Below, piece after piece: positions 18,130 through 24,133 of a stretch of DNA of 64,000 nt; position 1 is the stretch's first letter, and each line of letters begins with the position of its first letter. The DNA lies in assembly GCA_038874595.1 (NCBI GenBank), contig JAVZCB010000003.1:59332-123331 (forward strand), written 5' to 3'. The notes beneath the pieces are model-generated. The model searched no databases. It was given only the letters and a program-made list of their open reading frames with translations, and was not told the DNA's origin. The translations under genes were made by a program, and so were the position numbers. Origin of the DNA: Candidatus Micrarchaeia archaeon. Its GTDB lineage: Archaea; Micrarchaeota; Micrarchaeia; CAILAH01.

Positions 18130-18348
18130 ATTGATTCTTGGTTTTTCTTTTAAATAATTTCTTAGTGTTTTTTGTAAAGTTTTTTTAGTGTGGTTTCTTT
18201 TTTAAAAGAAAAAGTACAAGTGTGGTTCTTTCCTTTTCTAAAAGAAAAGAATCCTAAAACTTAGAAAACCAAAACAAGCTTTCTTTTCTAGATATAAGTT
18301 TTCTTTTCTAGTGTAGTTCTTTTCTTTTTCTAAAAGAAAAGAAGTACA
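18130..18348. repeat. AT-rich imperfect tandem palindromes between the convergent flippase gene and rRNA operon (probable terminator zone)
   Basis: Three copies of GTGT(G/A)GTT..CTTT..T(C)TAAAAGAAAA near 18188, 18220 and 18311, each self-complementary. Confidence 0.6.
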
Positions 18349-18379
18349 AGGATGGAAATTTTAAGGAAGTGCATTTGGC
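18349..18379 (-). other. 3' strand of the 23S pre-rRNA processing stem (BHB)
   Basis: Pairs with 21302-21332: AGGATGGAAAT-GAGG-TTG-AAGTGCATTTGGC against GCCAAATGCACTT-CCTT-AAA-ATTTCCATCCT, a canonical bulge-helix-bulge. Confidence 0.85.
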
Positions 18380-21332: not shown

Positions 21333-21373
21333 CCCATTCGGGAAGATGTGAGCACTCAACGAAGGAAACTCAC

Positions 21374-21486
21374 TGTGTCGCTTTTTAGGCAGTTGTGTGT
21401 GAAGCACACAATTTGCAACCGAAGGTTGCAACTCCCAAAAAAGCGTAGTTTTTGGTGTCGCTTTTTAGGCATCCCAAAAAAGCGAC
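21374..21486 (-). repeat. Duplicated hairpin unit in the spacer; second copy carries a 41-nt insertion
   Basis: CGCTTTTTTGGGA/TGCCTAAAAAGCGACAC occurs twice; the downstream copy is interrupted at 21392-21432. Confidence 0.85.
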
Positions 21487-21487
21487 T

Positions 21488-21630
21488 TGCAAAGCGGGCG
21501 CTCTACCGGACTGAGCTATGAGCCCTTGAGCACGTCACGTTTCTCGATACCGTGACCTGCAGGATGGACTCAGCGAGATGCCCAGCACTTTTTTCCTAAA
21601 AAAGTGCTTTTGAACTCGCGGCCTCCCGCT
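21488..21630 (-). tRNA. tRNA-Ala(UGC), circularly permuted: 3' half 21630-21565 (with 30-nt 59/60 intron 21608-21579), 39-nt linker, 5' half 21525-21488
   Basis: 5' half GGGCTCATAGCTCAGTCCGGTAGAGCGCCCGCTTTGCA; 3' half AGCGGGAGGCCGCGAGTTCAAA[intron]TCTCGCTGAGTCCA. Together they give a full cloverleaf with G3:U70 and A73. Confidence 0.92.
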
Positions 21631-21896
21631 TTTTTGGTGTTTCCTTCTCGTGCCTGTACAGGCTTCAAGAGATTTAGCTTGAGCAAAAAGGCAATACTAC
21701 AAACTCTGACCTTGCAACCTTAGAAGATCTCAAATATGCTTACAACCTAACACGTATATTCTTGTTAGGAGGTGATCTATCCGCAGGTTCCCCTACGGAT
21801 ACCTTGTTACGACTTAGCCCCCCTCATGAAACTCTAGTTCGATAACGGCAAGAACCGCTACCTCACTAGAACCTCACTTGGGTGACTTGACGGGCA

Positions 21897-21934
<38 letters not shown>

Positions 21935-21952
21935 CTGACATGCGATTACTAG

Positions 21953-21993
<41 letters not shown>

Positions 21994-22178
21994 CACTGGG
22001 ATGGGGTTTCAGGGATTAGCTCACCCTTTCGGGTTTGCAACCCGTTGTTCCCACCATTGTAGGCCACGTGTAGCCCGGGAAATTCGGGGCATACTGACCT
22101 ACCGTCGCTCACTCCTTCCTCCTGCTTAACGCAGGCAGTCCCCTTAGAGTGCTTCCTGGACGAATCCAAGAATCGCAA

Positions 22179-22673
22179 CTAAGGGCGTGGGTCTCGCTCG
22201 TTTCCGGACCACATAGCCTGAGAGTGGGGTTTGATGAAAGTGAGGAATTCTCTGGGAGGGGATGGAATTAAGTATTTGCCTTCTTTGATGAGCCTGAACC
22301 CAAGGCGCTCTATTAGCATCTGCTTATCAGCGCCGACACTGAACATCCTGGGTATTCCGTTCTCATCAATAAATCCTGATGCATCGAACACGCCCGCAAC
22401 AAATGCGGCGCTGTATGCATTCCTGTGTTTGAACCTGAGGTCCATTTCTTTCTCAACCTCTGAGAAGAATTTTTTGTACCCTGAGTGGTAGAAATATGCC
22501 TTCTTCCCGCTCAGCAGTATCTTGCTTGCGGGCATAAGCCCTGCATTTATAACTGCGCTTATGAAATGCTCACGCACGTGCGGAAGCCCCCGCACGCCGA
22601 TTCCTACCCATGATTTTCGTGTAGACCACATACCTATTATATATGCAAGTTCTGGCGTTAGCTTTATTTTCAT
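22179..22673 (-). CDS. LAGLIDADG-family homing endonuclease-like protein, intron encoded
   Basis: ELAYIIGMW (degenerate first motif) and AAFVAGVFDASG (second motif). Confidence 0.8.
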   Translation of the reverse strand: MKIKLTPELAYIIGMWSTRKSWVGIGVRGLPHVREHFISAVINAGLMPASKILLSGKKAYFYHSGYKKFFSEVEKEMDLRFKHRNAYSAAFVAGVFDASGFIDENGIPRMFSVGADKQMLIERLGFRLIKEGKYLIPSPPREFLTFIKPHSQAMWSGNERDPRP

Positions 22674-22712
22674 AATTTCCCCCCATCAAACCTTATCTCA
22701 AACTCTGTGATT
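22202..22712 (-). mobile_element. Archaeal BHB-type 16S rRNA intron (511 nt) carrying a LAGLIDADG ORF
   Basis: Interrupts GTTAAGTCCGG..AACGAGCG; terminal stem ATCACA/TGTGGT, bulge GAA, helix CCGG/CCGG, bulge AAA; exact register is ambiguous because GTCCGG is at both ends. Confidence 0.88.
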
Positions 22713-22866
22713 TCCCGGACTTAACCGGACAGTTCACACCACGAGCTGACGATGGCCATGCACCACCTCTCGGCTTGTCAAGCAAGGTCTTTAGCCTGGC
22801 TCTCATTCTGCCGTCGTTCCCGGTAAGATTCCCGGCGTTGAATCCAATTGAACCGCAGCCTCCACG

Positions 22867-22901
<35 letters not shown>

Positions 22902-23001
22902 TAGCCTTGCGGCCGTACTCCCCAGGTGGCAGACTTAACACCTACGCTACGGCACGGCAGCCGCTCAAAGCTGCTGCCACACCAAGTCTGCATCATTTAC
23001 A

Positions 23002-23043
<42 letters not shown>

Positions 23044-23115
23044 CTTCGTTCCTCACCGTCGGACGTGTTTTGGTCAGGCGCCTTCGCCACTGCTGGTCCG
23101 CCCAGGATTAACGGA

Positions 23116-23158
23116 TTGTAATCCCGTGGATTGCAAATTGTTGATGCAATCAACAGGT
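23116..23158 (-). other. 43-nt mini-intron in the 16S 690 loop (about E. coli 696/697)
   Basis: Removal restores GTAGGGGTAAAATCCGTTAATCC; BHB-like with helix GTAA/TTAC and bulges AAA and AAT. Confidence 0.75.
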
Positions 23159-23428
23159 TTTTACCCCTACCCCGGGCGTACCCCTGACCTCCCCCACTCC
23201 CAAGCCTAGCAGTATTACTGGCCCGCCCTTCGGTTAAGCCGAAGGATTTCACCAGCAACTTACAAGGCCGGCTACGAACGCTTTAGACCCAATATGCGTG
23301 GGTACCACTAGTAGTGCCGGTATTACCGCGGCGGCTGGCACCGGTCTTACCCACTCCTTATTCGCCTAGTTTTTTAGACTAAGCAAAAGGTCTCCCGAAG
23401 GAGACCACTCGGAGTTCCCCCATCACAC

Positions 23429-23476
23429 TTTTGCACCTTGCAAAGCAAGTGCAAATTGCAAAGCTCGCTTTGCATG
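23429..23476 (-). other. About 48-nt insertion in the 16S helix 15 loop (about E. coli 382)
   Basis: Removal restores CAATGCACGAAAGTGTGA; two hairpins; BHB fit imperfect. Confidence 0.7.
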
Positions 23477-24133
23477 TTCGTGCATTGTGGAGTTTTCGCG
23501 CCTGCTGCATCCCGTAGGACTAGGGCCCTTGTCTCAGTGCCCTTCTGGGGGCTCCCACTTACATGGCCCCTAAGGATTATAGGTTTGGTGGGCCGTTACC
23601 CCGCCAACAGCCTAATCCTCCGCAACCTCATCCTAAAGCGGACACACTCCAATTCGTGTGCCTTTTGAGCGAGAGGGCATTCCAGCGTCTCTCACCTATA
23701 GGGTATTATCCTCAGTTTCCCGAGGTTACCCCCTTCTTTAGGGCAGATTGATTACGTGTTACTCAGCCGTTTGCCACTCGTCCAGGTGAACGGGTAGACT
23801 TGCATGGCTTAGTCGAACTCCGATAGCAGTACCCTCCAGCAGGATCAACTGGAGTTGCTAAGGTCTTGGCATTCGCACCAGTGTTGGTGCATCTAGGTCA
23901 TACCACTTTGCGTGTAGTATCTTACCGTACATATGTGCCTTTCAGCACAGTGCACGTTTGCCTATTGCTCTTTAAGCCTCTCTTGAAGCCTCTATCTAAC
24001 CCGACACATCTTCGGATTATCATCAAGTCGCCGCATGTGCGGCCTATGCGCCACAATGGAAGCAGGCCTCATAGAAAGAGTATCACATCTCGGCCTAGCC
24101 GGGTTATGGCATCTCAACTTTAAGAAGTCTAGG

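Follow-up and report, generated by a model that had tools for sequence, protein, structure and literature searches.

The gene for tRNA-Ala(UGC) in Candidatus Micrarchaeia archaeon is permuted. Its 3′ half lies upstream of its 5′ half on one strand, inside the spacer of the rRNA operon, and the 5′ half is followed by a 39-nt sequence that sits in the exact register of the introns found between positions 37 and 38 in related tRNA genes. The archaeal genome that we analyzed (G000) comprises 917,795 bp in 7 contigs, and the 64,000-nt stretch of contig C3 that holds the locus is called the window throughout. On balance, we favor the reading that the 39-mer is the 37/38 intron of a once ordinary spacer tRNA-Ala(UGC), kept whole beside the 5′ half after a rearrangement that started with a tandem duplication. 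The parts of this reading differ in strength. It is very likely that the gene broke at its ancestral intron and that both copies of a 10-nt repeat at the two junctions derive from intron sequence; tandem duplication at the DNA level is a reasonably probable route to this arrangement.

A permuted tRNA-Ala gene in the rRNA spacer

The rRNA operon occupies the minus strand of the window, with the 16S gene at 23855-21767 and the 23S gene at 21300-18381, and the spacer elements described below lie on the same strand. Directly behind a leader comes the tRNA's 3′ half (A38-A73, 21565-21630), which matches the 3′ halves of relatives and is itself interrupted between A59 and U60 by a T-loop intron of 30 nt (21608-21579). 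A 39-nt linker holding a small hairpin (21526-21564) connects A73 to G1 of the 5′ half (G1-A37, 21488-21525, with A37 at 21488), a segment 100% identical to the 5′ half in one relative (G006). Together the two halves form a full cloverleaf with the isotype identity elements of tRNA-Ala. The acceptor stem contains G3:U70 and is followed by A73, the anticodon is UGC, and the D, T and anticodon arms all form when the assembled tRNA is folded. The halves match orthologous unpermuted genes at 92-100%. Because the gene is permuted, ARAGORN and the Rfam tRNA model both miss tRNA-Ala(UGC) when run on the window. We found no second tRNA-Ala(UGC) anywhere in the assembly, and the permuted gene should therefore be required for GCA codons.

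The permuted arrangement is no assembly artefact, because both an independent hot-spring DNA sample (X2) and a contig of a diverged relative from an RNA library (X4) carry it. In X2, the whole spacer lies within a single contig and has 1 base change. The X4 contig has the order leader, 3′ half, linker, 5′ half, and relative to the window it has 6 substitutions, a linker shortened by a 10-nt deletion and a T-loop intron with a 6-nt insertion, with no differences listed over 21631-21650. This contig is unspliced, so it documents gene order and not processing. An RNA run from the same study as X2 (X11) gave no contig on the spacer, which by itself does not prove absence. In contigs of another relative (X3), we found 0 differences in the 5′ half and the whole 39-mer, and the 20 nt upstream of G1 could not be aligned with the linker of the window; the X4 linker is likewise diverged.

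An exact 10-nt repeat marks the two junctions of the permuted gene. One copy of ACACCAAAAA (21640-21631) directly precedes A38 at 21630, and the other (21458-21449) ends the 39-nt hairpin unit that starts directly after A37 (21487-21449). Both placements had been described in an initial annotation of this DNA, and both hold on the minus strand. The match extends over 10 nt and no further, with A at position -11 in the leader and G at the corresponding position after the hairpin. The same annotation recognized that its proposal would suffer if the 10-mer were simply frequent in intergenic DNA. It is no common intergenic word, because there are only 2 copies in the window (0.31 expected) and 12 in the entire genome on both strands. 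Coincidence, in which the repeat and the neighboring hairpins would be meaningless features of an A/T-rich spacer, draws on the general over-representation of A-rich words, since base composition predicts ~3 copies in the genome rather than 12. It has to contend with the fact that both copies fall exactly at the two splice junctions, that only 4 of 100 shuffles reach 2 copies anywhere, that orthologous introns share the tail and that the hairpin covaries and is kept in relatives, and we regard it as extremely improbable. A target-site duplication was also considered as the source of the 10-mer and ruled out, since the sequence between the repeats is the tRNA itself.

Unpermuted orthologs carry an intron at the break

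We searched 40 related genomes and read their rRNA spacers where these were assembled. An assembled spacer was available in three genomes of the same family (G004, G005 and G006, which belong to three other genera), and in each of them the tRNA-Ala(UGC) is unpermuted and interrupted by introns both at 37/38 and in the T-loop; unpermuted spacer tRNA-Ala(UGC) genes also occur in other families of the class. The break in the permuted gene falls at the position where these unpermuted relatives carry an intron. Judged by outgroup comparison, the unpermuted, intron-bearing spacer gene is the ancestral state. The initial annotation had suggested looking in close relatives for an unpermuted tRNA-Ala with a similar 37/38 intron and had named unrelated or missing introns as the outcome that would count against it; related 37/38 introns are what the spacers of G004, G005 and G006 contain.

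The G005 gene provides the closest comparison. Its 37/38 intron consists of one A, a hairpin and a tail that ends in CCAAAAA directly before A38, and over this tail and the 22 nt of exon that follow (A38-A59) it is identical to the window at 29 of 29 positions. Because of this 100% identity, we identify the leader 10-mer as the 3′ end of the ancestral 37/38 intron. More distantly, introns at 37/38 that end in CCARAA before A38 occur in families f1 and f4, the intron ends in f4 being CCAAAAC, CCAGAAT or CCAAGAT, and family f6 has the T-loop intron only. The CCARAA tail, which pairs with U32-G35, is an old feature. Beyond the tRNA itself, a block of sequence, CTCACATC, directly follows A73 in G004 and G005, and in the window it lies at 21352-21345, past the hairpins that follow the 5′ half. 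The introns of tRNA-Ala(GGC) and tRNA-Ala(CGC) in the window's own genome are unrelated to the 39-mer save for an A-rich 3′ end and lend no support.

The 39-mer is a member of a dispersed intron module

The 39-mer (21449-21487) is composed of an A, a hairpin and a tail ending in the 10-mer. Hairpin 1 (21486-21457) has a 10-bp stem, in which 21486-21477 pairs with 21466-21457, and its loop region is UGGGAUGCCU. After a CUA, the 39-mer is followed by a second hairpin (hairpin 2, 21375-21445), and a further 22 nt lead to CTCACATC. This second copy, also noticed in the initial annotation, is real, but it is not degenerate as had been thought. Its arms at 21445-21433 (13/13) and 21391-21375 (17/17) are identical to those of hairpin 1, 30/30 together (families D1 and D3; I2), and it is set apart by a 41-nt twin-hairpin insert between them (21432-21392) and by the absence of the CCAAAAA tail. 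The insert sits exactly between GGGA and UGCC at the tip of hairpin 2, and the same insert is found at the same point in introns of other tRNAs in G001, G002 and G007.

These hairpins belong to a module that recurs in the tRNA introns of this family, made of a hairpin (a U-rich and A-rich stem, the tip GGGAUGCC and a variable outer stem) and an ACCARAAA tail. The module begins 0-2 nt past the 5′ splice site in introns of both the anticodon loop (one tRNA of the same-genus G001, tRNA-Asn(GUU) of G002, and tRNA-Gly(UCC) and tRNA-Leu(CAG) of the present genome) and the T-loop (tRNA-Asp(GUC) of the present genome and several tRNAs of G001). There is also a long form, in which the 41-nt insert of hairpin 2 recurs, and hairpin 2 itself is 96% identical over 69 nt to one T-loop intron of G001. 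An alignment of 11 module copies is 92% paired and 5 of 12 pairs are compensatory, a result reached by none of 500 shuffles, and a covariance model detects 1-18 copies in each of the 9 family genomes (9/9). The module is also present outside tRNAs, with copies in the spacer, next to the 23S 3′ flank and in the interval between two protein genes.

The 39-mer is homologous to genuine 37/38 introns by several measures. It resembles the intron of the G005 ortholog, is 94% identical over 36 nt to the anticodon-arm intron of a tRNA in same-genus G001 (contig C9), and scores 62.8 bits with covariance model R1, compared to 59.9 bits for the anticodon-loop intron of tRNA-Gly(UCC) in its own genome. From these sequence matches it is a full member of the intron family, in the exact register A37 / A-G-hairpin, and this register upholds the earlier claim that, joined to a 3′ half, it would be an ordinary 37/38 intron. 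Today the 39-mer is a trailer. It follows A37 but runs into CUACGC of hairpin 2 instead of A38, and only a junction with the upstream 3′ half would turn it into an intron.

The dispersal of the module raises the question of whether hairpins 1 and 2 are copies of a mobile element that inserted beside A37 once the gene had been permuted, with a conserved ACCARAAA tail that happens to resemble the leader, which must pair with U32-G35. There are 1-18 copies per genome, one of them intergenic between two protein genes and some with flanking direct repeats of 11-15 nt; hairpin 2 is 96% identical to the intron of a different tRNA in G001; and the tail is conserved family-wide even where it is unpaired with the exon. 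A further resemblance to an insertion comes from X3, where the order in the hairpin region is hairpin, ACACCAAAAA, GCAAGT, hairpin, GAGA, AGTTTCC and the hairpin is covered at double depth. The second hairpin there has no 41-nt insert, and G35-C36-A37 is repeated ahead of it, so that GCAAGT stands on either side of hairpin and tail like a target-site duplication. However, positions -8 to -10 vary among orthologous introns (UUC.. in G005 versus ACA in the window) and yet are identical between the leader and the hairpin tail, and the hairpin begins precisely in register with an intron, at A37 / A-G. Since an intron already stands at this position in every sister genus, it is ancestral and requires no new insertion, and an insertion would leave the swap of the two halves unexplained. 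We consider a late insertion of the hairpins unlikely, although it deserves more weight than mere coincidence.

A broader and tentative possibility, which we rate slightly higher than a late insertion, is that the module is a mobile "portable splice-site arm" that spreads among anticodon loops, T-loops, rRNA spacers and intergenic DNA, and that is tolerated since it brings its own outer helix for the motif recognized in splicing, the bulge-helix-bulge (BHB). Its duplication and recombination might then drive tRNA scrambling in this Micrarchaeota-like family, the present permutation included, and the retained copy with its tail might be selected as a two-state switch that times the release of tRNA-Ala against rRNA processing.

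Several further observations concern module copies elsewhere. Outside the window, a tRNA-Gly(UCC) gene on the minus strand (G000:C1:~134490-134720) has introns in the anticodon loop and the T-loop, and both hold the module, the second apparently reversed. This gene was missed by ARAGORN and is absent among the 22 Rfam tRNA matches; standard tools recover only about half of the expected tRNA set in this genome. Three long-form copies in G001, L035 (G001:C20:1-420), L038 (G001:C68:14600-14847) and L032 (G001:C10), are flanked by direct repeats of 11-15 nt. In reverse complement, the L035 repeat corresponds to a tRNA 3′ end (T-stem and acceptor strand), and the last 14-15 nt of the tRNA are doubled around the element, a pattern that resembles a target-site duplication or an att-like arrangement. 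Two hairpins of like style, in which ACACUAGAAA comes after a U-rich/A-rich stem, flank the 23S gene's 3′ end at 18302-18350 of the window (G000:C3:77633-77681), and one of them matches model R1 weakly, at 25 bits. At the other end of the spacer, the 16S gene (21767-23855) is 2089 nt long against a model of 1478 positions and contains ~600 nt of insertions. The T-loop intron of the window (21579-21608; AGCAC-U6-AGG-A6-GUGC..) is closer to the anticodon-loop intron of G005 than hairpin 1 is, and the G005 T-loop intron shares CGCUUUUUUGG with the hairpins of the window; the two hairpin types look exchanged between intron positions in the window genus versus the G005 genus.

Reconstructing the rearrangement

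In the published origin model for permuted tRNA genes, outlined in section 10 of PMC3978253, a gene with an intron is duplicated in tandem and the outer exons are then lost. Applied to this locus, an ancestral gene in the order 5′ half, intron, 3′ half, as still found in sister genera, would have been duplicated in tandem. Deletion would have left the upstream copy without its 5′ half and with no more than the final 10 nt of its intron, and would have taken nearly all of the 3′ half from the downstream copy. The order remaining would be tail, 3′ half, linker, 5′ half and full intron, and the 10-nt redundancy would represent the overlap between the two deletions. Such a duplication is supported by the ancestral state, by a break that falls at the intron, by the overlap of 10 nt and by the location of CTCACATC, which is still where the ancestral 3′ end would be. 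The 11 nt before this block resemble the real 3′ end (TCGTTGAGT versus TCGCTGAGT; p about 0.03-0.05), and they make TTCGTTGAGTG (21353-21363), which abuts CTCACATC, a weak candidate for a remnant of the outer 3′ half. In searches within the genome by unanchored local alignment, a 5′-half remnant upstream was not found above shuffles (p = 0.22). Comparing the 3′ half with downstream sequence gave p = 0.07, and we set this candidate aside since the match is only the U-run of a hairpin.

In a member of another family (G038; L005, spacer 140-222 after the 16S end), the spacer tRNA-Ala has a partial tandem duplicate. Two copies of a segment made of ~5 nt of upstream flank and the first 15 nt of the gene (CTCGGGCCCGTAGCTCAG), spaced 61 nt apart, precede a gene that is normal in other respects. 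Such duplications therefore do happen in these spacers.

Several points weigh against tandem duplication followed by decay, or against the direct descent of hairpin 1 from the ancestral intron. The outer 3′-half remnant is a faint trace at the p values above, and it would also need the loss of a T-loop intron. An attempt to read the linker as a copy of the upstream flank (CCTG..CAGG..CACG..GAAAC) was not significant (p = 0.18-0.21) and went unused. No tandem intermediate was found in the relatives, among which the same-genus bins G001 and G002 lack an rRNA operon and further same-genus spacer sequence comes from partial contigs. The breakpoint on the right-hand side coincides exactly with the intron/exon boundary and so hints at an RNA-defined event, not a random deletion. 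The X3 contigs add two difficulties: hairpin 1 is unchanged there while the linker has diverged, which fits a neutral relic badly, and the hairpin region is itself being duplicated or invaded. The module family is dispersed and possibly mobile, which weakens the claim of direct descent for the 39-mer, and taken together with X3 this means that hairpin 1 could be secondary. Finally, with X4 unspliced and no spacer contig from X11, these RNA data contain no spliced or circular product. Less weight attaches to public metagenome and genome contigs, where four exact-pattern scans (tRNA-Ala 3′ end then 5′ end within 15-45 nt; 5′ half then hairpin) gave 0 matches with the window's own genome excluded, a weak negative. 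Homologs of a protein flanking the locus are 48-53% identical.

The sharp breakpoint invites a route through RNA, in which the same intron-bearing ancestor would have given rise to a circular or concatenated pre-tRNA that was copied slightly beyond one unit, the copy then replacing the gene. Models B and C, as presented in part of PMC3978253, are of this kind. Copying of this sort would give a 10-nt terminal redundancy with splice-site-defined ends, and the redundancy does end exactly at the intron/exon boundary; the X3 order of hairpin, tail, GCA and AGU-hairpin is close to a circularised-intron junction, and the outer-half remnants are faint. But the 39-nt linker has no obvious source in mature tRNA ends, and a precise in-situ replacement inside an rRNA operon would be required. 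The 3′-end remnant beside CTCACATC, weak as it is, favors in-place decay. We judge the RNA route improbable. Our analysis suggests tandem duplication as the simplest and most economical of the proposed routes. Of the history proposed in the initial annotation, the intron-bearing ancestor, the break at the intron and the 10-nt overlap are well founded, and its weaker side lies in the p values of the outer remnant and the linker (0.03-0.05 and about 0.2) and in the missing intermediate.

Predicted splicing of the permuted transcript

A permuted tRNA has to be rejoined at 37/38, and we therefore folded a 361-nt precursor and compared forced conformers by energy. The leader ACACCAAAAA overlaps the 5′ strand of a 9-bp clamp (21639-21647, GAAGGAAAC), which is complementary at 9/9 positions to the 3′ strand at 21369-21361 (GTTTCCTTC; inverted repeat I11). 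The clamp surrounds the permuted tRNA and both hairpins and is present in the minimum-free-energy fold, and its 3′ strand is kept in the X3 contig. In the predicted BHB, leader positions C-6 to A-3 would pair with U32-G35 as the central helix, and A-2, A-1 and A38 would form the bulge at the 3′ splice site. The resulting 3-4-3 motif is a possible one, with anticodon stem, AA/A bulge, UUUG:CAAA helix and CA/A bulge, and it is relaxed in that the outer helix either has 2 bp or comes from the hairpin across the junction.

The ground state, with an extended anticodon stem, has an energy of -135.4 kcal/mol. The productive conformer, in which the leader CAAA is paired with U32-G35, both 3-nt bulges are formed and the hairpin is closed, has -131.8 kcal/mol, and it thus lies 3.6 kcal/mol above the ground state, a gap comparable to the 3.7 kcal/mol of the ordinary G005 intron. 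Because the two gaps match, the permuted BHB can be modeled as essentially the ancestral motif with an opening between its hairpin and its tail. A strict hBHBh′ form, with a 2-bp leader outer helix and the hairpin partly open (-125.6 kcal/mol), was rejected; it is 6 kcal/mol worse than the conformer with hairpin 1 closed, and for this reason the hairpin is preferred as the outer helix. In the ordinary introns of the family, the hairpin stem is likewise the outer helix next to the 5′ splice-site bulge.

The initial annotation had suspected that the retained copy competes with the productive BHB, and folding agrees. With the retained tail on U32-G35, the energy is -132.2 kcal/mol, about as favorable as the -131.8 kcal/mol of the productive conformer, and pair probabilities for the retained tail are ~2-fold above those of the productive helix. 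The retained tail is thus predicted to be an equal competitor for U32-G35. We expect the cost of this competition to be modest, because the two conformers differ only in a 4-bp helix. A further alternative involves the leader/3′-exon junction CCAAAAAAGCG (21627-21637), which is complementary at 11/11 positions to the 5′ arms of both hairpins (21474-21484 and 21435-21445; I6 and I7). This pairing might mask the 3′ splice site; the minimum-free-energy fold does not contain it.

Calling the hairpin a fossil, as had been done, does not suit what we see, as the 39-mer is not decaying and is unchanged in X3 though the linker has diverged. A neutral relic should have drifted as that linker did, and we conclude that the hairpin probably continues to serve as the helix next to the 5′ splice site. 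Maturation could then proceed as follows. The leader tail would pair with U32-G35 to give the central 4-bp helix, with AA/A38 as the 3′ bulge and CA/A as the 5′ bulge, and the hairpin stem beside the 5′ bulge would act as the outer helix, as in ordinary introns of the family. The clamp would keep the leader and the distal trailer together. An epsilon-type endonuclease would cut both bulges, RtcB would circularise the tRNA, RNase P and tRNase Z would take out the linker, and the T-loop intron would be spliced separately. The retained cis tail would not be needed for BHB formation.

The genome encodes a processing toolkit of a broad-specificity EndA, RtcB (572 bits) and RNase P, whose RNA scores 91 bits. 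Fragments of EndA (G000:C7:3-733) match first residues 151-254 and then residues 264-387 of the 395 residues of 4fz2_A (E ~1e-39), which we take to be the ARMAN-2 endonuclease. The gene is cut by the start of contig 7 and broken by a run of N, so its full architecture is unreadable in the assembly. The fragments fit a single-chain, three-unit enzyme of the epsilon type. An endonuclease of this architecture has been described for ARMAN-2 (PMC3239211, PMC12397907).

Discussion

Permuted tRNA genes have been known from a few algae and one crenarchaeon, and their origin by duplication has so far rested on plausibility and one suggestive algal locus. According to parts of PMC3978253, the algal genes of type II, with the junction at 37/38, occur in Cyanidioschyzon merolae, prasinophyte green algae and the Bigelowiella nucleomorph. 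They share with the present gene a 3′ half upstream of the 5′ half on one strand, the 37/38 junction, a predicted BHB between leader and trailer and a maturation via a circle that is likewise predicted for our gene. The proposed origin is also the same, by duplication of an intron-bearing gene, and the same portions of that review mention an extra 5′ half in O. lucimarinus as a suggested intermediate. In contrast to these genes, ours is archaeal, lies within an rRNA operon spacer and has an additional T-loop intron; it keeps a complete intron copy with a 10-nt terminal redundancy; unpermuted orthologs survive at the same locus in sister genera; and the BHB outer helix comes from the intron hairpin and a distant clamp rather than from simple pairing of leader and trailer.

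Two archaeal permuted tRNAs are known, both from Thermofilum pendens and with junctions at 59/60, as set out in sections of PMC3218864 and PMC3978253. That organism also has a broad-specificity splicing endonuclease and many non-canonical introns. It differs in belonging to the Thermoproteales rather than to a Micrarchaeota-like DPANN lineage and in its 59/60 junctions, compared to 37/38 here, and the portions of PMC3218864 that we drew on mention neither a retained intron copy nor an orthologous unpermuted locus. The Thermoproteales also provide the closest parallel to the module, in families of near-identical introns found across tRNA genes and positions (anticodon loop and T-loop) that suggest spread by intron "transposition" (cited in parts of PMC3239211 and PMC4090602). 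The shared unit here is instead a defined, covarying hairpin with an ACCARAAA tail in Micrarchaeota-like genomes. Unlike those families, it is not confined to tRNAs, with copies in the spacer, next to the 23S 3′ flank and between protein genes, and it has both a short form and a long form with a nested 41-nt insert. Permuted two-piece transfer-messenger RNA (tmRNA) and rRNA genes (Williams 2002, cited in a section of PMC3978253) again share tandem duplication followed by loss of outer segments, but their products stay in two pieces or are processed otherwise, whereas here a BHB splice would rejoin a normal tRNA.

The literature searched gave no permuted tRNA in Micrarchaeota or other DPANN archaea, and none in the rRNA spacer of an archaeon. 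Genes of this kind have been described before, as has the model for their origin; the novelty lies in where the gene sits, in the intron that it retains together with the overlap and in the survival of orthologous unpermuted loci. The locus extends permuted tRNAs to a Micrarchaeota-like DPANN archaeon, to the 37/38 junction in archaea and to the interior of an rRNA operon. Sister genera have kept an unpermuted ortholog, the break is at the intron, the intron copy survives in full alongside an overlap of 10 nt, and diverged relatives have the same arrangement, which permits a closer reconstruction than before. The locus gives rare direct evidence on how scrambled tRNA genes arise and makes the duplication model directly testable. 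For this tiny hot-spring archaeon itself, the arrangement means that the endonuclease and ligase that release 16S and 23S rRNA would also have to rebuild an essential tRNA.

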